Origin: a virus
Taxonomy: Duplodnaviria; Heunggongvirae; Uroviricota; Caudoviricetes
Strand: one strand, 5' to 3'
Length of the DNA: 14,972 nt
Virus record (IMG/VR): IMGVR_UViG_3300029656_000143
Location: 1-14,972 of that record
In this document: piece after piece, positions 1 to 9,560 of the stretch
Layout: each line of letters opens with the position of its first letter
Numbering within the stretch: the stretch's first letter is position 1
Position numbers and translations under genes: made by a program
Notes under the pieces: model-generated
The model's input: only the letters and a program-made list of their open reading frames with translations
The model's database searches: none
Told to the model about the DNA's origin: nothing

Positions 1-336
1 ATGGCTTCTAAAAAATTTTACTCAGATGATGACATCCAGCTGGCAAAAGCTGCTTTATCAGAATTGCCGGACCTCACCGCTCAACGGAAAACATTGCGTG
101 ATTTTCTTGATGCCATTCGTGATGACATTATTGTCCTGGTAAGGACAAAGGGTTATACACTGGCAGATGTTCGTGACACGCTCAAAAATGCAGGGTATGA
201 AGTAGGAGAGAAGGCACTTCGTGACATTATTCGGGAAGCAGAATCGAAAAAACCATCCCGCCGTTCTTCCTCTAAAACAGCACCTAAAAAGACAGATTCA
301 GGCAGGAAAGATGGCATCGATATGAACAACAATTAA
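1..336 (+). CDS. hypothetical protein, 111 aa, with a basic Ser/Lys/Arg-rich C-terminal tail; possibly 5'-clipped by the window edge
   Basis: ORF begins with ATG at window position 1 and ends with TAA at 334-336. No family recognised. Composition suggests a small nucleic-acid-binding protein (inference only). Confidence 0.4.
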   Translation: MASKKFYSDDDIQLAKAALSELPDLTAQRKTLRDFLDAIRDDIIVLVRTKGYTLADVRDTLKNAGYEVGEKALRDIIREAESKKPSRRSSSKTAPKKTDSGRKDGIDMNNN

Positions 337-351
337 TGTGACAATGTCACA
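337..351. repeat. perfect 15-bp palindrome TGTGACAATGTCACA
   Basis: Read directly: 7-bp arms TGTGACA/TGTCACA around a central A, starting 1 nt after the stop of ORF 1-336, between convergent ORFs. Confidence 0.6.
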
Positions 352-421
352 TCGTGTTCTGAGATTATGATGATTACAGAAAAAAAAGCCCCGGCATAAA
401 TACCAGAGCTTTTCTGTTTAA

Positions 422-1270
422 TCAGACTCGTGGCGGCAATACACCAGGATAATGCCGTGCAATAATATCATTCAGTTTTTCAACAAGGTCAGAACGCTTA
501 AAGACAATGTGTACGGTCCCTTTCTGGTAGCCACGCACCGTAAAATATTCCCCTTCTAACAACTTACCGACATTGTCGCCGTTCCCGAGAAATTCACCAT
601 ACTGCGCCCCGATGCTGTTCCTGAAGTCAGGAACGTTGCGCCCGTCCAGCAGATAAAAAGGACGTACCAGGTCATCCAGTACCTCCCGTCCGCTGCAGTC
701 CAGCGTCACACGCCCGTTACTCCAGCGGTACAGCATGTTTTCAATAATGATTCTCTTGCCCAGACGGCAGGGATTATTGGTTCTGTAATCCCATGACAAT
801 TTCCGGTAGACATCAATCAGTCCCTGTTCAAATGTCTGCATCTTGCTGGCATTCAGATGGCGGAATGTTGCCAGCACATTGTCCAGGGTGATTTCAGGAC
901 AGGTGTCGCTCATCAGCTGGCTATTCCACTCATCACACTGGCATGAACTCATGAAGGTGTACATGCCCGTATCTGTCATCAGGCGGTCCCAGATTTTCCG
1001 GTCGGCAAGACGGGTGATATTCCTTTTCGCTTCTTCCGGTTTATCTATGCGACGAACGGAATCAGTCACGCAGTCTTCAAACCCGTAAAGAAAAATATCA
1101 CCTGACGCATCGAGCAGAATCTTGCGCGCTGTCGCCAGGCATTCCATCGCCTGCATGAACAGTGCAATACCTTCGTTACGCTGCGCGATGATGCGGTCGA
1201 TAGCCACAGACGGAATAACATCTGTCGTGCCGGCAGTATTCAGGTCAGCAGTGGGTAAAGTCTGATTCAT
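422..1270 (-). CDS. orphan hypothetical protein, 282 aa (283 aa if the GTG at 1273 is used); family not recognised
   Basis: Long uninterrupted minus-strand ORF. ATG (plus-strand CAT at 1268-1270) is preceded on the coding strand by GAGGAGA 8 nt upstream. Globular-looking composition. Possible resemblance to DUF4942-type island proteins is a weak recollection only. Confidence 0.65.
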   Translation of the reverse strand: MNQTLPTADLNTAGTTDVIPSVAIDRIIAQRNEGIALFMQAMECLATARKILLDASGDIFLYGFEDCVTDSVRRIDKPEEAKRNITRLADRKIWDRLMTDTGMYTFMSSCQCDEWNSQLMSDTCPEITLDNVLATFRHLNASKMQTFEQGLIDVYRKLSWDYRTNNPCRLGKRIIIENMLYRWSNGRVTLDCSGREVLDDLVRPFYLLDGRNVPDFRNSIGAQYGEFLGNGDNVGKLLEGEYFTVRGYQKGTVHIVFKRSDLVEKLNDIIARHYPGVLPPRV

Positions 1271-1745
1271 CACATTGTCTCCTCATCGTCACGACTGCCG
1301 GGTCAGCCAGGTCATTTCCCGGAGGAGCGAAGCTCCTTCTGCCGTCCGGGTCTTCGGGGATTTCCCCGCAGTGGACCTTTCCGACGGGGGACGCTCACCA
1401 CGTCACGGGGCAGTTGTCCGGGGGCAGACGCAAAAGTTTTTGACGCCTGCGGCAAAAAGTTTTGTGGCTGGTACATCTCTCCCCTGGACGACTGAAACGG
1501 GATGTGGTCGTGTATGTACCCCCGGAAAGTTCGTCTGCGGAGAACGGGCCGCAGTGCGGCGGCAGACAGGCAGAGACAGCTGCGCCATCAGGCGCAGTGG
1601 CCTTACACACCGTAAGGTGTGCAGGGAGCGCCGCATCCGGCGCGACTGAAGAAAAACGACGGCACAACAATGGCATGTGGTGGTCACTGGCACACCACTC
1701 CCGCACAGGTGAAAACAGAGAAAACCGCACGACATTTACAACCAA

Positions 1746-1835
1746 AAAAAGTGAAATTTCTTCACTTTTTCACACTTATTTATCGCGTTGATTTGGTGAT
1801 TATGATGATAAAATAAAGTGAAGTTTTTTCACTTT
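1746..1835 (+). promoter_or_regulatory. promoter region with two operator-like palindromes upstream of the HTH gene
   Basis: Palindrome 1 is AAAAAGTGAA-ATTTC-TTCACTTTTT at 1746-1770. Palindrome 2 is AAAGTGAA-GTTTT-TTCACTTT at 1815-1835. Between them are a -35-like TTGATT (1788-1793) and a -10-like TAAAAT (1809-1814). The SD AAAGGTG lies at 1839-1845 before the ATG at 1850. Hexamer assignment is approximate. Confidence 0.5.
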
Positions 1836-1849
1836 TTCAAAGGTGTTTT

Positions 1850-2101
1850 ATGACCGGCTGGGAACTGCGAATCTGGCGAAAAAGCATGCTCTGGTCACGC
1901 GAAAAAGCGGCCAGAGAATTTGGCGTGACGCAGAGAACATGGCACGCCTGGGAAAATGCGGAACAGGTGGATGTCACCGTCTGGAGGACCACCCAGGCAC
2001 TTTCAGTCCGTGACCTGCTGCCTCACATGCAGGGGATGCGTAAGGCAGATATCATCAGGCGACTGGAAAATGAACTGGGGGAAACGGCAGAGGATGTGTG
2101 A
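1850..2101 (+). CDS. small XRE-type helix-turn-helix DNA-binding protein, 83 aa (putative autoregulated regulator)
   Basis: The segment WSREKAAREFGVTQRTWHAWE matches the HTH pattern of Cro/CI-type regulators. Good SD, ATG start, TGA at 2099-2101. Operator-like palindromes lie immediately upstream. Confidence 0.65.
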   Translation: MTGWELRIWRKSMLWSREKAAREFGVTQRTWHAWENAEQVDVTVWRTTQALSVRDLLPHMQGMRKADIIRRLENELGETAEDV

Positions 2102-2131
2102 GCGTGATTCACAGCCTGGCTGAATGCCAGG

Positions 2132-2302
2132 CTACTGCTCATCAGGAAACAGCTTTTTCAGTTCTTCACCGGAAAGTCCGGTCGCCTCCTGAATCCGTTC
2201 CGGCGTCCAGCCCATATCCCGCAGCCGGCAGGCTATTTCCCGCGCCACTTCAAGAGCACCTTTTTCAAAACCTTTCTGTATAAGACGTTCTGCAATCGTC
2301 AT
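2132..2302 (-). CDS. possible small protein resembling the C-terminal repeat domain of Rpn/YhgA-family proteins (56 aa from the internal ATG; the ORF track extends it to 2398, into the IS end)
   Basis: MTIAERLIQKGFEKGALEVAREIACRLRDMGWTPERIQEATGLSGEELKKLF has the G..G....A......G...E.I...TGLS.EEL pattern I associate with Rpn/YhgA C-termini. AGGAG lies 13 nt upstream of the ATG. Could be a gene fragment or spurious. Confidence 0.3.
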   Translation of the reverse strand: MTIAERLIQKGFEKGALEVAREIACRLRDMGWTPERIQEATGLSGEELKKLFPDEQ

Positions 2303-2325
2303 GCTGTTTGCTCTGCTCCTGCTGG

Positions 2326-2352
2326 CAAAAAAGCCCGGGATTTTGCCGGGCT
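2326..2352 (-). terminator. intrinsic terminator-like hairpin (minus-strand sense)
   Basis: AGCCCGG (2332-2338) and CCGGGCT (2346-2352) form a 7-bp stem with a 7-nt loop. On the minus strand it is followed by TTTTTT (complement of the A-run 2326-2331). Confidence 0.5.
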
Positions 2353-2448
2353 TTGCGGTTCTCTGCGTATTACCGTGAAGGAGATCGGTGAGTAACATCG
2401 ATGGAGATCGGTTCGTGTCACTTTCACAGAACCGTTTTTAAATTACCT

Positions 2449-3198
2449 TCACTGATCTCCTTCGGTCAACGGAGATTGTATTTTCCGCATTGATTCTCCT
2501 TTAAGTTCGATCTTGATACTGCCATGAACCAGTCGATCTAGGATGGCATCCGCATGTGTGGAGTCTCCGATCATTTTGTACCAGTTTTCCACCGGCAACT
2601 GGCTCACTACGATGATTGAGCCTCGTTGGTACATCAGATCCACTATTTCCAGCAGGTCGCTACGCTGTTCTGATGAGAGAGGTTCCAGCCCCCAGTCATC
2701 CAGAAGCAGCAGATCGCTATTATTCAGCCTGGTCAAAAGTTTGCTGTATCTTCCATCAGCATGCCCCTGATAGCACTGTTCCATCAGCGCTTTAAGGCGA
2801 TAATAGTAGACCTTGTATCCCTGTCGGCAGGCATTATGACCAAGTGCACATGCCAGGAACGTTTTACCGCTGCCGGTGGCCCCGGTCAGTAAAATATTTT
2901 GTTTCAGGGTTAACCAGTTTCCCTGACTGAGTGAACGGATGAGGGCCCTGTCCAGCCCTCTATTGTTACGATAATCCAGCTTTGATAACTCAGCATTAAG
3001 TCTGAACCGTGCATGTTTGATCAGACGCTCTGCCTTCCTGTTTTCACGGCAGGTTAGTTCTTCTGCTGTCAGTAATGACAGGCGTTCTTCGAAGCCCAGC
3101 TCCTGGTATGTGCCCGGCTGAGCAAGTTGCTTTTTAAGCGCATCACGGAAGCCGGTGAGTTTAAGTGCGGTCAGTTGTTCGTAAAGATGATTCATCAT
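2449..3198 (-). CDS. istB: IS21-family transposition helper ATPase IstB, 249 aa
   Basis: Walker A GATGSGKT and Walker B LLLLDDWG in a DnaC-like AAA+ layout; lies immediately downstream of istA on the same strand. Confidence 0.9.
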   Translation of the reverse strand: MMNHLYEQLTALKLTGFRDALKKQLAQPGTYQELGFEERLSLLTAEELTCRENRKAERLIKHARFRLNAELSKLDYRNNRGLDRALIRSLSQGNWLTLKQNILLTGATGSGKTFLACALGHNACRQGYKVYYYRLKALMEQCYQGHADGRYSKLLTRLNNSDLLLLDDWGLEPLSSEQRSDLLEIVDLMYQRGSIIVVSQLPVENWYKMIGDSTHADAILDRLVHGSIKIELKGESMRKIQSPLTEGDQ

Positions 3199-3209
3199 TG
3201 GATCCCGTA

Positions 3210-4751
3210 TCAGTGGTAATACTCACTGCCGCGTACGTTTTCGTGTTCCATCGTGGATAACAGATCTGGTTTTGGATCCTGAACAGGTTGTTTATCCAGA
3301 CCTTTTTCCAGGATCGATTTAATACCTGACAGACGCCATACCTTTGTTTTCAGAGCTCTTGCACATGCTGCATTAAGTCTGGCTTTACTGTATTTTTTAT
3401 GAAGGTTCAGGAGTCCAAGGCAGAAGCGATAGCTTTGTTCCGGATGTGGACGAGAGTTCAGTATATGAAGCACATAACTATGAGTTTCACTGCCTATGTG
3501 CCCCGCCCATTCCAGAAGACGCTCTGGCGTCCAGGTGGCATGCTGTCGATGAGCTTCAGGCATGTGCTCGTTGCGGGTACTGTAGCCATAAGTACGCTTG
3601 CGCGGGTGCACAGCAACCTCCTGCCCCTGATTGAAGAGTCTTACCAGTTCTCCGGAGATCCATGCTTCCAGTTGCTGGCCTAACAGCGAACATGGAACCG
3701 AGTAGTAATGTTTGTCGATTTCCACGTGGTAATCGGCATGGACTCTGACTTTCTTCACCAGGGTGTAACTGTAACTGGCTTCAGGAAGAGGCTTCAGTGC
3801 GGGTTTATCAAGCTGGATGAAGAGTTCTGCACGTGAATAACCCAACTTCTGCATTATTTTGTTATTCAGTCTTTCCAGCAACTCCCGAATGCGCTGATTA
3901 AGCGATGCAAGGCTGTAGAAGATCTCATGCCTGATTCGGGCCATGATCCAGCGTTCAACAACCTGAACGCCAACTTCAGCTTTGGCTTTATCTTTCGGTT
4001 TACGTGGCCGCGCAGGCAAAACTGCGACATTATAATGCTCAAGCATCTGCTGGTAGGTAGGGTTAACGTCAGGATCATACTTACATGCCCTGGATGTGGC
4101 GCTTTTCAGATTGTCCGGAACAACAAGTTCAGGAACGCCACCCAACCACTGGAAGCAGCGAACATGACTCATCACCCAGTCTTCAAGCTGCTGAGACCAG
4201 GTGGCCTCTGCCCATGTGTAACTTGATGCCCCGAGAACAGCTACGATGACCTGAGCAGTTCTTATTTCTCCGGTCTCAGGGTCGGTAACGCCAACGGTAG
4301 GTCCACAGTAATCAACGAAAAGTTTTTCGCCAGCTTTATGTACCTGACGCATTGATGGTGAAGTGGTTTTGAGCCATTCACGGTACATCCGGCAGTAATG
4401 GTTATAGCTGTAAAAACCGCCTGGATTACGCTCACAGTATTCTTCCCAGAGTAGCTGCAGCGTCACGCATTTATTACGCAGTTCCCGGTGTACTGTAGCC
4501 CAGTCAGGCAGAGAGTGCTTCTTCATCTTAACCTGGGTCTGAAGGAACGCATGTTTTAGTTTTGTATCATCCCATCCTGTAGGTAAGGGCCACTGCTTTA
4601 TGCCAAGTTGAGCCGCCCGATTAGCATATCTGGATACAACGGAAGGGGAGATTGCAAGACTACGACCAATTTGTCGATGGCTGAGTCCAACACCGTATTT
4701 AAGCCTAAGAATTTCTTTAAGTTTTCTCATAGAAATTGGAACTGTTGGCAT
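3210..4751 (-). CDS. istA: IS21-family transposase IstA, 513 aa
   Basis: N-terminal HTH (LSHRQIGRSLAISPSVVSRY), central DDE-type integrase core, IS21-type C-terminal region; 11-bp gap to istB. Confidence 0.9.
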   Translation of the reverse strand: MPTVPISMRKLKEILRLKYGVGLSHRQIGRSLAISPSVVSRYANRAAQLGIKQWPLPTGWDDTKLKHAFLQTQVKMKKHSLPDWATVHRELRNKCVTLQLLWEEYCERNPGGFYSYNHYCRMYREWLKTTSPSMRQVHKAGEKLFVDYCGPTVGVTDPETGEIRTAQVIVAVLGASSYTWAEATWSQQLEDWVMSHVRCFQWLGGVPELVVPDNLKSATSRACKYDPDVNPTYQQMLEHYNVAVLPARPRKPKDKAKAEVGVQVVERWIMARIRHEIFYSLASLNQRIRELLERLNNKIMQKLGYSRAELFIQLDKPALKPLPEASYSYTLVKKVRVHADYHVEIDKHYYSVPCSLLGQQLEAWISGELVRLFNQGQEVAVHPRKRTYGYSTRNEHMPEAHRQHATWTPERLLEWAGHIGSETHSYVLHILNSRPHPEQSYRFCLGLLNLHKKYSKARLNAACARALKTKVWRLSGIKSILEKGLDKQPVQDPKPDLLSTMEHENVRGSEYYH

Positions 4752-4932
4752 AGGTATCCTTTACCGGAATGGCAAAAGATACAGATCAACACACCTGTGA
4801 AGTTCCAATAACATTGATGGAGATCACTGAATAACAAAATGAGTCAAAAGTGATCTCCATCGATGTTATTCAGCGATCTGTTCAAATGTTATTACCCGAT
4901 CTCGATGGAAGTTATTGAGTGATCTCCTTTCA

Positions 4933-6694
4933 TGAAAATACGCAAACGCTAATTGCCGTGGCGAACATGGCCGAAAGTTATAAACCCGCTCTTGCCGAAG
5001 GCTCAGGGCGTTCGCAGACCTGTCGCATGGTCATCATCGTCAGCAGTGTGGCCTCAGTGGAGCTGACCATTGACACCACAACGGTGATGGCGACGCAGGA
5101 TTACGTTGATGACAAAATTGCAGAGCACGAACAGTCACGACGTCACCCGGACGCCTCGCTGACCGCAAAAGGTTTTACTCAGTTAAGCAGTGCGACCAAC
5201 AGCATATCTGAAACACTGGCCGCAACGCCGAAAGCGGTTAAGGCCGCATATGACCTTGCTAACGGGAAATATACCGCACAGGACGCTACCACAGCGCGAA
5301 AAGGTCTTGTCCAGCTAAGCAGTGCGACCAACAGCACGTCTGAAACACTGGCCGCAACACCAAAAGCCGTTAAGACGGTAATGGATGAAACGAACAAGAA
5401 AGCGCCATTAAACAGCCCTGCACTGACCGGAACGCCAACGACGCCAACTGCGCGACAGGGAACGAATAATACTCAGATCGCAAACACGGCTTTCGTTATG
5501 GCCGCGATTGCCGCCCTTGTAGACTCGTCGCCTGACGCACTGAATACGCTGAACGAGCTGGCAGCGGCGCTGGGCAACGACCCGAATTTTGCTACCACTA
5601 TGACTAATGCGCTTGCGGGTAAGCAACCGAAAGATGCTACCCTGACGGCGCTGGCGGGGCTTGCTACTGCGGCAGACAGGTTTCCGTATTTTACGGGGAA
5701 TGATGTTGCCAGTCTGGCAACTCTGACAAAAGTCGGGCGGGATATTCTTGCGAAATCGACCGTTTCCGCCGTTATCGAATATCTCGGTTTACAGGAAACG
5801 GTAAACCGAGCCGGGAACGCCGTGCAAAAAAATGGCGATACCTTGTCCGGTGGACTTACTTTTGAAAACGACTCAATCCTTGCCTGGATTCGAAATACTG
5901 ACTGGGCGAAGATTGGATTTAAAAATGATGCCGATGGTGACACTGATTCATATATGTGGTTTGAAACAGGTGACAACGGCAATGAATACTTCAAATGGAG
6001 AAGTCGCCAGAGCACCACAACAAAAGACCTGATGAATCTTAAATGGGATGCTCTGTATGTTCTTGTTAAAGCCCTTTTCAGCAGTGAAGTAAAAATATCT
6101 ACAGTCAATGCACTGAGGATATTTAATTCATCTTTTGGTGCTATTTTTCGCCGTTCTGAAGAAAACCTGTATATCATCCCTACACGAGAAAATGAGGGTG
6201 AAAATGGAGATATTGGGCCATTAAGGCCATTCGGCATCAACTTAAGAACAGGAGTTGTGTCTGTTGGTAATGGTGCCAGGATTGATGGCGGGCTGGCACT
6301 TGGCACGAATAACGCGTTGGGTGGGAACTCTATTGTTCTTGGTGATAACGACACCGGATTTAAACAAAATGGCGATGGTAATCTGGATGTTTATGCTAAT
6401 AACGTCCATGTTATGCGCTTTGTTTCCGGAAGCATTCAAAGTAATAAGACCATAAATATTACGGGGCGTGTTAATCCCTCGGATTACGGTAACTTTGATT
6501 CCCGCTATGTGAGAGATATCAGACTTGGCACACGTGTTGTCCAGACCATGCAGAAAGGGGTGATGTATGAGAAAGCAGGGCACGTAATTACCGGGCTTGG
6601 TATTGTCGGTGAAGTCGATGGTGATGACCCCGCAGTATTCAGGCCAATACAAAAATACATCAATGGCACATGGTATAACGTCGCACAGGTGTAA
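4933..6694 (+). pseudogene. H: 5'-truncated P2-type tail fibre gene H; the first ~80-100 codons are missing, replaced by the IS end
   Basis: Product from TLIAVANMAESYKPALAEGSGR onward, ending GTWYNVAQV, matches my recollection of the P2 gpH tail fibre. The ORF-track reading frame (4919-6694) begins with a GTG inside the IS terminus. No upstream H segment is present left of the IS. Confidence 0.85.
5180..5374 (+). repeat. tandem 63-bp repeat units (period 132 bp) inside H
   Basis: 5180-5242 and 5312-5374 are near-identical (CAGTTAAGCAGTGCGACCAACAGCA... / CAGCTAAGCAGTGCGACCAACAGCA...), encoding QLSSATNS(I/T)SETLAATPKAVK twice. Confidence 0.7.
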
Positions 6695-6697
6695 TTT

Positions 6698-7225
6698 ATG
6701 CAGCATTTAAAAAATATTACTGCGGGTAATCCAAAAACTGTTGCCCAATATCAACTGACAAAAAATTTTGATGTTATCTGGTTATGGTCCGAAGAGGGAA
6801 AAAACTGGTATGAGGAAGTAAGTAATTTTCAGGAAGACACGATAAAGATTGTTTACGACGAGAATAATATAATTGTCGGCATCACCAGAGATGCTTCAAC
6901 GCTTAACCCTGAAGGTTTCAGCGTTGTCGAGGTTCCTGATATTACCTCCAACCGACGTGCTGATGACTCAGGTAAATGGATGTTTAAGGATGGTGCCGTG
7001 ATTAAGCGGATTTATACGGCAGATGAACAGGAGCAACAGGCAGAATCACAAAAGGCAGCTTTACTTTCCGAAGCTGAATCCGTGATTTTTCCGCTGGAAC
7101 GCGCTGTCAGGCTGAATATGGCGACGGATGAGGAACGCAGCCGACTGGAAGCATGGGAACGCTACAGCGTTCTGGTCAGTCGTGTGGATCCTGCAAATCC
7201 CGAATGGCCGGAAATGCCGCAATAA
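6698..7225 (+). CDS. G: tail fibre assembly protein (P2 gpG-type), 175 aa
   Basis: Starts 4 nt after the H stop with SD AGGTG. Sequence (MQHLKNI...[12 protein letters not shown]) matches my recollection of P2-type G/Tfa proteins and the conserved H-G order. Confidence 0.85.
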
Positions 7226-7446
7226 GTTGTATGATCTCTGGTGTGAGCTTACATATCTATAGCACAGAGTAAAGCCTAATCTGACAGACCGCTCTGTGTC
7301 TGGAGTAGATTTTAGTAAAGCATTATTTTATTAGTGCAAATTCTAATCAATACATTTTATGTATATGATATCCTGCGGACTTTAATGACTTGGTTTAGGC
7401 TAACCAGATAACACTGAAGGAATATTTTTGATAATTAAGGTGCGGT

Positions 7447-8040
7447 ATGTTTACTAAGCGACGATTAAAAAATATTAACTGGGAGGCAAGTTCAGTGATT
7501 CTTGCTATGGTTCTCTTTGTTGGAAATATATTTTACACAAATCACCGTGATGATATAAGCATGGAGGCTGAGAGGGACAGTATCAGAACAATGTTTGCAT
7601 ATGAAATCGCTAATAACCATCGCGCTCTCACTTTTCTTGATAAAACGAGACATATTGGCTTTGACGAAAATTCGGAGCATTTTGTTGGCGAGCCTTTTGC
7701 CATTAATGTCAAATCATTAGGAGGGCCTCGCTTACAGGTTGCATTAAACCAGACTGATAAAGTGTTTAAAGCCTACTTCAGTGAATTAAGTAAACTTGAT
7801 AAAGAGGATGTTACTCTTCTTATGGACTATTACAATGAGCAAAGCATCCTGCTGGAGTGTGTAAAATCTACGTTACAGAAGATGAAAAGCAATAATGATA
7901 TTAAAGTTGATATTGATGGTTACTTATTAGAAGAACACTTCATGAATGAGTTTAATCTTTCTAATATTTTGCTTAAACGCTATAGCCATTTGTTGTCACA
8001 ACACCTCAAAAAACCTGAAACAAAAGATTTACATAATTGA
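7447..8040 (+). CDS. AT-rich 197-aa membrane-anchored protein at the Z/fun lysogenic-conversion locus; candidate superinfection-exclusion / anti-phage protein
   Basis: Position between G and FI is where P2 carries Z/fun. SD AAGGTG 5 nt upstream. Visibly AT-rich codon usage compared with flanking tail genes. N-terminal KRRLK followed by the hydrophobic stretch SSVILAMVLFVGNIFY (signal-anchor-like). Flanked by 221-bp and 329-bp noncoding regions and a strong terminator. Confidence 0.7.
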   Translation: MFTKRRLKNINWEASSVILAMVLFVGNIFYTNHRDDISMEAERDSIRTMFAYEIANNHRALTFLDKTRHIGFDENSEHFVGEPFAINVKSLGGPRLQVALNQTDKVFKAYFSELSKLDKEDVTLLMDYYNEQSILLECVKSTLQKMKSNNDIKVDIDGYLLEEHFMNEFNLSNILLKRYSHLLSQHLKKPETKDLHN

Positions 8041-8247
8041 TGATCTGCTAATGGTTATTCATGGGATAACTATGTTTTATATGTAATCCAACTCAGATGA
8101 ATTATTGATTCTGGATAATAACCGCAGAGCGGCATATACCCTGACAGGCAAATGTCCGCTTCTTGATCAAAGCAGACTGTCAGATTTGATAACTTTTGGG
8201 TTATGTAAATTGTCAGTCGGAAAATGAGTGTGTACAAATCAGGACAG

Positions 8248-8273
8248 GCGGGCGAATTGCCCGCTTTTTCTTT
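8248..8273 (+). terminator. rho-independent terminator downstream of the Z/fun-locus gene
   Basis: GCGGGC (8248-8253), loop GAATT, GCCCGC (8259-8264), then TTTTTCTTT (8265-8273). Confidence 0.65.
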
Positions 8274-8369
8274 ATCTGTTGTTTCATCCACTGACCAGCC
8301 AGGTCAAATAGCGTCTCATGCACTACCCAACGGAAAATAGTTGCACCCATTAACCACGGAGTTAAACGG

Positions 8370-9560
8370 ATGAGTGACTATCATCACGGCGTGCAGGTGC
8401 TGGAAATTAACGACGGCACCCGCGTCATTTCCACCGTATCCACGGCCATTGTCGGCATGGTCTGCACGGCCAGCGATGCGGATGCGGAAACCTTCCCCCT
8501 CAATAAACCGGTGCTGATTACCAATGTGCAGAGCGCAATTGCAAAGGCCGGTAAAAAAGGCACGCTGGCGGCGTCGTTACAGGCCATCGCAGACCAGTCA
8601 AAACCGGTCACCGTTGTTGTGCGCGTGGAAGACGGCACCGGCGACGACGAAGAAACGAAACTCGCGCAGACCGTTTCCAATATCATCGGCACCACCGACG
8701 AAAATGGTCAGTACACCGGACTGAAAGCCCTGCTGGCGGCGGAGTCGGTAACCGGTGTTAAACCGCGTATTCTCGGTGTGCCGGGACTGGACACCAAAGA
8801 GGTGGCTGTTGCACTGGCATCAGTCTGTCAGAAGCTGCGCGCTTTCGGGTATATCAGCGCATGGGACTGTAAAACCATTTCCGAGGTGAAAGCCTACCGT
8901 CAGAATTTCAGCCAGCGTGAGCTGATGGTCATCTGGCCGGATTTCCTCGCATGGGATACGGTCAGCAGTACCACCGCCACCGCGTATGCCACCGCCCGTG
9001 CGCTGGGTCTGCGCGCTAAAATCGACCAGGAGCAGGGCTGGCATAAAACGCTGTCCAATGTCGGGGTGAACGGTGTTACCGGCATCAGCGCATCCGTCTT
9101 CTGGGATTTGCAGGAGTCCGGCACCGATGCTGACCTGCTTAACGAGTCTGGTGTCACAACGCTGATTCGCCGCGACGGTTTCCGCTTCTGGGGTAACCGT
9201 ACCTGCTCTGATGACCCGCTGTTCCTCTTTGAAAACTACACCCGCACCGCGCAGGTGCTGGCCGACACGATGGCTGAGGCGCACATGTGGGCGGTGGACA
9301 AGCCCATCACCGCAACGCTGATTCGCGACATCGTTGACGGCATTAATGCCAAATTCCGTGAGCTGAAAACAAACGGCTATATCGTGGATGCGACCTGCTG
9401 GTTCAGCGAAGAATCCAACGATGCGGAAACCCTCAAGGCCGGAAAACTGTATATCGACTACGACTATACCCCGGTGCCTCCTCTTGAAAACCTGACCCTG
9501 CGCCAGCGTATTACCGATAAATACCTGGCAAATCTGGTCACCTCGGTTAACAGCAATTAA
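8370..9560 (+). CDS. FI: contractile tail sheath protein (P2 gpFI), 396 aa
   Basis: MSDYHHGVQVLEINDGTRVISTV... matches my recollection of P2 FI. SD GGAG upstream. Length and FI-FII-E-T-U-D order as in P2. Confidence 0.92.
   Translation: MSDYHHGVQVLEINDGTRVISTVSTAIVGMVCTASDADAETFPLNKPVLITNVQSAIAKAGKKGTLAASLQAIADQSKPVTVVVRVEDGTGDDEETKLAQTVSNIIGTTDENGQYTGLKALLAAESVTGVKPRILGVPGLDTKEVAVALASVCQKLRAFGYISAWDCKTISEVKAYRQNFSQRELMVIWPDFLAWDTVSSTTATAYATARALGLRAKIDQEQGWHKTLSNVGVNGVTGISASVFWDLQESGTDADLLNESGVTTLIRRDGFRFWGNRTCSDDPLFLFENYTRTAQVLADTMAEAHMWAVDKPITATLIRDIVDGINAKFRELKTNGYIVDATCWFSEESNDAETLKAGKLYIDYDYTPVPPLENLTLRQRITDKYLANLVTSVNSN

Follow-up and report, generated by a model that had tools for sequence, protein, structure and literature searches.

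A very probable mobile single-gene cassette, predicted to encode a membrane protein, between the tail genes G and FI of a P2-like prophage

The cargo gene and the limits of its insertion

The 14,972-nucleotide stretch of viral DNA recorded as IMGVR_UViG_3300029656_000143 (the window, analysed here at its full length) is, over its right-hand 10 kb, recognizable from its sequence as part of a P2-like (Peduovirus) prophage, namely its late tail region, with the genes H (∼4945–6694), G, ORF197, FI, FII, E/E′, T, U, D and ogr in that order. ORF197, the open reading frame (ORF) studied here, lies on the plus strand at 7447–8040 (stop codon included), starts with ATG and encodes 197 amino acids (aa). 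We conclude that it is very probably a mobile single-gene cassette for a bitopic helical membrane protein. The end of G at 7225 and the start of FI at 8370 leave gaps of exactly 221 bp and 329 bp on either side of ORF197; these coordinates agree with those in an earlier note on this DNA. The left flank of the hotspot, G (6698–7225, plus strand), matches Pfam Caudo_TAP (E 5e-35) and is annotated in NZ_AP022326 as a tail fiber assembly protein. The right flank, FI (8370–9560, plus strand), is the tail sheath gene by annotation in NZ_AP022326 and in phage records. ORF197 has a GC content of 0.348 and the cargo segment that contains it (7299–8154, defined below) one of 0.343, as against 0.449 for G, 0.507 for the whole window, and 0.565 and 0.568 for the tail genes FI and FII on the 3′ side. 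At third codon positions (GC3), the cargo has 0.34 vs 0.68 for FI. ORF197 is thus AT-rich relative to its flanking tail genes, as the earlier note had it.

Both the substitution pattern and the translation start of ORF197 mark it as a genuine gene. Pairwise ratios of non-synonymous to synonymous change (pN/pS) between ORF197 and six homologues from other genera are 0.20–0.36, with synonymous sites near saturation, and on these sequence comparisons purifying selection acts on ORF197. A ribosome-binding site read from the sequence, AAGGTG (7437–7442, plus strand), lies 4 nt 5′ of the ATG and has AAGGAG, AAGGA and GAGGA counterparts at homologous loci. We accept the gene because of these pN/pS values and the conserved Shine-Dalgarno motif; a full-length match to PHROG 3829 and an AlphaFold2 model (next section) complete the basis of its annotation as a predicted bitopic membrane protein. 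A minus-strand ORF of 73 codons with a GTG start (8070–8291) overlaps the 3′ flank, the terminator and conserved backbone; it has no support as a gene and is probably spurious.

We set the limits of the insertion by blastn against reference P2 (AF063097). Homology to P2 stops at window position 7298 and restarts at 8155, and the cargo-specific segment is therefore 7299–8154, a plus-strand cassette of 856 bp. In its place reference P2 carries 2086 bp with fun(Z). The segment is likewise missing from 136 of the 149 matching phage records; the other 13 have ORF197. Between G and the cassette lies conserved P2 backbone (7226–7298, plus strand, aligned to P2 by blastn) with an imperfect hairpin, CACAGAG...CTCTGTG, also found in P2, which folds no better than shuffled sequence (z = +0.47). 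Everything from 8155 onward, including the terminator and the FI promoter region, is by the same alignment conserved P2 backbone and lies outside the moron. The FI-proximal stretch (from ∼8145–8168 to 8369) is matched in 1001 of 5426 complete Escherichia coli genomes with any cargo to its left, and the full cargo occurs in 201 of the 5426, i.e. in 3.7% of genomes and at ∼20% of G–FI junctions. Other cargos at this junction include fun(Z), Wphi orf44 and a SMEK-domain protein. Composition and homology break together bear out the earlier description of a compositionally foreign single-gene insertion at the G–FI (Z/fun) variable site of P2.

The right-hand limit has a further feature. By blastn, a 3′ flank segment at 8146–8183 (plus strand) is common to cassette copies in a Pantoea element (L005, aligned through 8183) and an Enterobacter plasmid (L003, 85% identity over 8146–8178), and is also present in reference P2. 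Because these last 30–40 nt persist in the P2 backbone, a common junction or a relic is suggested: the segment may be a recombination junction, or what is left in the P2 lineage of an earlier ORF197-type cargo. A ∼35-nt part of it holds an inverted repeat, CTGACAG...CTGTCAG, which is present in reference P2 without ORF197.

The predicted protein and its family

ORF197 contains a single hydrophobic segment, at about residues 12–31, with a Kyte-Doolittle maximum of 1.54 over 19 residues and 2.2 over 15. Hydropathy and flanking charges mark these codons (7480–7539, plus strand; WEASSVILAMVLFVGNIFYT) as the predicted transmembrane (TM) anchor, which forms part of a longer model helix. Positive residues precede it (K4, R5, R6 and K8), and the net charge is +3 on its N-terminal side and −3 on its C-terminal side. 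All 18 family members tested keep the hydrophobic segment, and in all 18 K/R exceeds D/E in the N-terminal flank. From this charge bias and its recurrence across the family we predict an N-in/C-out orientation, which would place nearly the whole protein in the periplasm, tethered to the membrane. We take the helix to be a signal anchor by inference from the sequence. A lipoprotein or a cleaved signal peptide was considered and rejected: the only Cys, C138, is far from the N-terminus, and the protein has neither an AXA-like cleavage site nor a lipobox. Three distant family members end in CxxxxC paired cysteines, consistent with an oxidising compartment.

An AlphaFold2 model built from a 23-sequence alignment (predicted local distance difference test, pLDDT, 76; predicted template modelling score, pTM, 0.70) comprises an unbroken helix at residues 12–66, a low-confidence loop at 67–91 and four more helices up to residue 183. 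The predicted fold is thus a TM helix leading into a generic up-down four-helix bundle. In a structural search, the nearest neighbours among natural proteins include periplasmic four-helix-bundle sensor domains; homology to a 4HB_MCP-type periplasmic sensor domain does not go beyond this generic bundle. The earlier note had described an N-terminus that is inside-positive, a single hydrophobic segment and a soluble domain with no recognizable motif, in line with hydropathy, charges and family searches. The structure prediction that it had proposed as a check yields the TM helix and bundle, with structural neighbours that are likewise generic.

ORF197 matches PHROG 3829 over its full length (E 8e-133), a family labelled ‘unknown function’. 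Thirty-seven relatives came from a word-indexed search, all of them from Enterobacterales; some are named ‘lysogenic conversion protein’ at NCBI. We found no NCBIfam model or paper as the source of this name, and it appears to be positional naming that carries no evidence of function. An exhaustive hidden Markov model search of 1.84 billion cluster representatives returned only 28 clusters, with one architecture throughout and none annotated. Full-length distant members, at 19–38% identity, keep this layout, with an N-terminus rich in K/R and a single hydrophobic helix leading into a helical domain. Across the family R47, N57 and L117 are invariant, and A51, E53, I54 and Y129 nearly so. A profile scan of the genome collection gave a single species-representative locus.

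Searches for known families were negative. Neither ORF197 nor its 18 relatives matched any enzyme or defence family in Pfam, PADLOC, NCBIfam or PDB sequences. ORF197 itself has no match at E ≤ 1 among the 5027 models of PADLOC-DB 2.0 and none in NCBIfam; its Pfam match to NCH2 (E 0.024, 15 bits vs a cut-off of 27) is noise. Run singly against PADLOC, the 19 family members gave only three unrelated single matches (E 0.004–0.006), none above noise, and no consistent match came from Pfam searches with the 19 or from comparing the family profile with all PDB sequences. The anti-phage function put forward in the earlier note therefore gains nothing from the defence-database check that went with it, and we found no other supporting data for it. 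The same note had called the mechanism uncharacterised, which is the case throughout the databases and literature searched.

Genomic contexts, transcription signals and the rest of the window

ORF197 moves independently of the genes around it. Twenty-eight IMG/VR loci share the G–ORF–FI geometry with fixed spacing, and in these ORF197 is paired with at least three G/H tail-fibre types (G identity 75–77%, 87–89% or 95–98%), so it is uncoupled from any particular receptor-binding module. Homologues outside the G–FI site have 55–68% identity to ORF197. One such context is directly 3′ of the primase in P4-like satellites of Pantoea ananatis and Kosakonia oryzendophytica and on one IMG/VR contig, a position that is a minor P4 hotspot between primase and att. 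These satellite homologues (L004 5402–6001, L002 5989–6591 and L040 3809–4591) are ∼60% identical to ORF197 and adjoin a primase of ∼775 aa. The family is thus present in both P2-type and P4-type elements, and this sharing is ancient and not recent.

Other contexts are more varied. A homologue lies at the end of a lambdoid Salmonella prophage (L006–L008 7040–9188), beside a DNA methylase/DUF4928 pair. In this pair the gene for a DNA cytosine methylase precedes one for a DUF4928 protein, an arrangement that resembles a compact restriction-modification unit within the terminal moron region of the prophage. Further homologues are found on plasmid-like Pantoea DNA near an AbiJ-like gene (AbiJ_NTD3), in a small AlpA-type element, and next to IS91 and a VapC module on an IncFII plasmid of Enterobacter. 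The plasmid copy is N-terminally disrupted: in Enterobacter cloacae CP033467 (L003 5871–6518) the called product is 161 aa long and lacks the TM helix, but upstream of the called gene there is still DNA with homology to the 5′ part of ORF197. Alleles of 99 aa (cluster members P0040 and P0042) occur on ∼40 E. coli contigs. The disrupted plasmid copy and these short alleles suggest that the gene is now and then lost by mutation.

In every context seen the gene is solitary, with no partner gene, and its GC content is 31–42% in hosts of 42–57% GC. The unit common to the window and the Pantoea element (window positions 7339–7406 and 7425–8183) consists of the leader, the ORF and a further ∼140 nt, in agreement with the cargo limits derived from P2. 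A human isolate of type O25:H4 has cargo identical to that of the window, and the matching E. coli listed include many human isolates.

The upstream part of this unit is a candidate promoter region. Positions 7339–7406 (plus strand) share 74% identity over 68 nt with the region upstream of the homologue in the unrelated Pantoea element (L005) and contain TATGAT at 7364–7369. This conserved 68-nt block fits a portable promoter, and an independent promoter is plausible on sequence grounds. A scan found no convincing sigma-70 promoter upstream of ORF197: the sole plus-strand consensus match (7408–7435) is too near the ribosome-binding site to be credible. A minus-strand sigma-70-like match inside the AT-rich leader, TTGATT-17-AATAAT (7350–7322), points left to G; matches of this kind are fewer than in shuffled sequence, so this one is probably due to chance. 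Rfam searches of the intergenic regions gave nothing at gathering thresholds, only a chance small nucleolar RNA match (E 0.4).

Downstream, a rho-independent terminator on the plus strand (GGCGGGC-GAATT-GCCCGC, 8246–8266, with a T run to 8275) lies inside the FI-proximal stretch shared by ∼1000 E. coli genomes. It accounts for most of the folding signal of the 3′ region (z = −2.0). It is followed by the pF late promoter region (8277–8346, plus strand), with an Ogr-type activator site at ∼8277–8302 and a transcription start at ∼8344–8346; we placed both by homology, carrying features 17555–17583 and 17626–17628 of the P2 record across by alignment. On this backbone comparison the terminator is an insulator of pF that the cargo exploits, and not a part of the moron. 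The corresponding hairpin in the P2 record (∼17524–17544) is degenerate, with one mismatch, one G-U pair and an interrupted T run; in the window it is perfect. In P2, fun(Z) reads away from this hairpin and a separate V-operon terminator follows G; in the window, ORF197 reads toward it. The backbone terminator may thus be co-adapted to the orientation of the cargo. A terminator scan found none between G and ORF197, so that in an intact prophage we expect read-through from the late V–G operon into ORF197. Of the moron with its own signals that the earlier note described, the strong terminator stands, but in the backbone and not in the cassette, and a promoter of its own is plausible without a well-placed consensus match.

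The left part of the window (1–4945) is non-phage and consists of ISEc12, an IS21-family insertion sequence (∼2400–4945; istA 3210–4751 and istB 2449–3198, both minus strand), abutting plasmid-like DNA that encodes a DUF4942 protein (422–1273, minus strand) and a helix-turn-helix protein. ISEc12 cuts the tail-fibre gene H at ∼4945, and the N-terminal ∼90 codons of H and all upstream late genes are missing. Because of this truncation and loss, the prophage copy in the window is probably defective, its remaining tail genes being separated from the late promoter of the V operon. The ISEc12–H junction occurs in no complete E. coli genome of the collection, and NZ_AP022326 has an intact V-W-J-I-H.

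Possible functions and relation to known systems

Published work gives the site a mixed record. Vassallo et al. 2022 (PMC9519451) reported that P2 has a second defence hotspot at the fun site, with three validated anti-phage systems there, and stated that Rousset et al. 2022 had not noted it. The word ‘fun’ has zero occurrences in the latter paper, and the earlier note was wrong to credit the hotspot to Rousset and colleagues. Wiles et al. 2013 (PMC3573123) termed the G–FI site ‘moron position 2’ and described neaT there in strain CFT073, which encodes a virulence-promoting acyltransferase. The iLund4u preprint calls the locus ‘mixed purpose’. A 2026 Nucleic Acids Research (NAR) study of P2 and P4 places one hotspot among the tail genes of P2 and a second between primase and att of P4, and finds that P2 and P4 almost never share defence genes. 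ORF197 is not among the systems tested in these two 2022 papers, the 2026 NAR study or the iLund4u preprint, and none of the systems newly validated in the NAR study resembles it.

We tentatively favour the view that ORF197 acts by narrow-spectrum superinfection exclusion at the envelope. Superinfection exclusion at genome entry is the commonest role of such prophage membrane proteins, and single-pass membrane proteins from morons among tail genes, such as HK97 gp15, offer a precedent. Since the predicted protein lacks a cytoplasmic domain and any enzymatic or nucleotide-binding motif, and ORF197 has no partner gene, the activity of the protein should lie in binding to other proteins or to the envelope, either in the periplasm or at the inner membrane. 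The location of the family at the G–FI and P4 primase-att sites, both published defence hotspots, we count in the same direction. ORF197 would then be a self-contained, horizontally mobile moron in variable site 2 (G–FI, Z/fun) of a P2-like prophage, transcribed in the lysogen from a promoter within the AT-rich leader (7299–7446). In an intact prophage, read-through from the V–G operon would add to this transcript, which would end at the backbone terminator either way. The product would sit with its positive N-terminus of ∼11 aa in the cytoplasm, its TM helix at about residues 12–31, and its C-terminal four-helix bundle of ∼165 aa facing the periplasm, so bringing about lysogenic conversion of the envelope. 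There the bundle may bind an inner-membrane or periplasmic host component needed for genome delivery by some phages, or the ejected tail proteins of an incoming phage; adsorption would be normal and DNA entry blocked.

Several observations weigh against envelope exclusion. A 99% identical copy of ORF197 is carried by P2_AC1, a phage that Rousset et al. isolated, and E. coli C lysogens of this phage were protected against lambda and LF82_P8 only, out of a panel of lambda, T4, P1, 186cIts, CLB_P2, LF82_P8, AL505_P2 and T7 (T5 and most siphoviruses being outside it). A TIR system cloned from the other hotspot reproduced the phenotype of the AC1 lysogens, and so ORF197 at native expression adds no obvious protection against that panel. 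These data are indirect negative evidence for broad defence at native expression. ORF197 has no sequence relationship to the exclusion protein HK97 gp15 (hhalign probability 0.4%), its helix is only moderately hydrophobic (19-residue maximum 1.54), and a generic fold, such as the one modelled, carries no functional information. Moreover, the cargo fills ∼20% of E. coli G–FI sites yet matches no PADLOC model. PADLOC should, we assume, include the systems from the T4/lambda/T7 selection of Vassallo et al. Finally, the same site carries the virulence gene neaT in CFT073 (PMC3573123), so position alone does not imply defence.

A rival reading is that ORF197 serves host fitness or virulence, changing some envelope property unrelated to phages (e.g., stress tolerance, colicin or serum sensitivity, aggregation or sensor signalling) to the benefit of the lysogen. 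neaT, the AT-rich (30% GC) occupant of moron position 2 in CFT073, promotes fitness in bacteraemia (PMC3573123); the cargo is identical in the O25:H4 human isolate, with many human isolates among the listed matches; AC1 lysogens show no phage phenotype attributable to ORF197; and periplasmic four-helix-bundle sensor domains are among its nearest natural structural neighbours. We nonetheless consider this reading somewhat unlikely, as the family is also found on plasmids and in the P4-like satellites of Pantoea and Kosakonia, which are plant-associated, with no tie to a pathogenic niche, has defence-like neighbours in several contexts (methylase/DUF4928, VapC and AbiJ_NTD3), and lacks an enzymatic domain of the neaT type. 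The sequence fits an abortive-infection effector less well. Such a protein would rest inert in the inner membrane, oligomerise on an infection cue and collapse membrane integrity, killing the cell before the phage matures. Small TM proteins are the effectors of many defence systems (Rousset et al.), the gene lies in P2 and P4 defence hotspots and a helical bundle could rearrange; but ORF197 has only a single TM helix, its ∼11-aa tail leaves no cytoplasmic domain for sensing intracellular phage components, no context supplies a partner sensor gene and no PADLOC effector model is matched, which makes this improbable.

ORF197 could also be an accessory of the lytic cycle of its own phage, co-transcribed with the late tail-fibre operon, that stops progeny from wasting genomes on lysing cells or modulates lysis or tail-fibre maturation. 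It has the same orientation as H–G, no terminator separates it from G, and transcripts would stop at the backbone terminator just 5′ of pF. The gene is, however, also found in elements that lack tail genes (P4-like satellites and plasmids), it is combined with at least three tail-fibre types, the G–FI region is dispensable for infectivity in the P2-like phage DuoHS, where it was replaced by a marker, and the gene is missing from most P2-like phages (present in 13 of 149 phage records). We regard a lytic role as distinctly improbable. Counter-defence or competition between elements, in which ORF197 would neutralise an envelope-level barrier of the host or interfere with a satellite or helper, we hold to be highly improbable. 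Anti-defence genes do occur occasionally in the hotspots (Anti_RM and Anti_CRISPR in 28 P2 elements), and the gene is present in both helper-type (P2) and satellite-type (P4) elements, but known anti-defence proteins are mostly small, cytoplasmic and early-expressed. ORF197 is predicted to be membrane-anchored with almost nothing in the cytoplasm, and it has no similarity to any anti-defence family.

Envelope exclusion admits a bolder form, which is possible if doubtful: that the ORF197 family is a new envelope-level anti-phage family whose periplasmic bundle intercepts genome delivery by phages beyond the published panels (e.g., T5-like and other siphoviruses), and which has moved as a promoter-plus-gene cassette of ∼850 bp between P2-like phages, P4-like satellites, lambdoid prophages and plasmids. 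Were this so, the family would depart from the pattern reported for P2 and P4, which rarely share cargo. Neither the hotspot nor the moron as a concept is new; the proteins form an uncharacterised orphan family, common in E. coli, which occupies about one in five G–FI sites of its P2-like prophages (3.7% of complete genomes) yet has no annotation, no functionally characterised relative and no PADLOC match. If ORF197 is an exclusion factor, it would add a single-gene envelope mechanism to a field dominated by cytoplasmic, nucleic-acid-targeting systems, and would help to account for patterns of phage resistance in O25:H4 and similar clinical lineages. If it serves host fitness instead, it would be the second case, after neaT, of non-defensive hotspot cargo and a caution on guilt-by-location annotation.

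Among known systems, the PD-type systems (Vassallo et al. 2022) share the genomic position of ORF197, but ORF197 and its 18 relatives match no PADLOC model above noise. P2 Fun(Z) (AAD03288.1) is likewise AT-rich, non-essential cargo at the G–FI insertion site annotated as lysogenic conversion; the traits ascribed to the fun allele are a block on phage T5 and sensitivity to FUdR. Fun(Z) differs in being 528 aa long and encoded on the opposite (minus) strand, and hhalign with the family profile gives a probability of 0.08 (E 0.64); the order of elements also differs, since in P2 the V-operon terminator precedes the cargo and in the window the cargo precedes the terminator. ORF197 is thus different cargo and not, as the earlier note had allowed, a possible P2 fun allele. 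neaT of CFT073 shares with ORF197 moron position 2 between G and FI, a very AT-rich composition and an occurrence at moron positions of unrelated phages; neaT, however, lies on the opposite strand and encodes a multi-pass acyltransferase (PF01757) whose part in virulence has been demonstrated, whereas ORF197 has no enzymatic domain. The likeness to periplasmic four-helix-bundle sensor domains (Tar/Tsr, PcaY, PilJ and histidine-kinase sensors) is that of a generic bundle.

In predicted architecture ORF197 resembles single-gene exclusion proteins. The lactococcal Sie2009-type and T4 Sp-type proteins, which are single-gene and prophage-encoded, have an N-terminal signal anchor and ∼100–170 aa outside the cytoplasm, like predicted ORF197. 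They belong to other phyla and phage groups and have no Pfam, PHROG or PADLOC link to it; the likeness is one of described architecture and size class. HK97 gp15 is a small protein with an N-terminal membrane helix that reportedly blocks DNA entry (Cumby et al. 2012). Its gene, annotated ‘moron product’, is likewise a lone extra gene among tail genes, in the same orientation and with its own terminator. gp15 differs in size (62 aa vs 197 aa) and lacks the four-helix-bundle domain. The gp15-type trait itself, an N-terminal TM helix with the remainder outside the cytoplasm, is a prediction for ORF197 on which hydropathy, charge bias and model agree. By position and architecture, HK97 gp15 can be considered the textbook analogue of ORF197.

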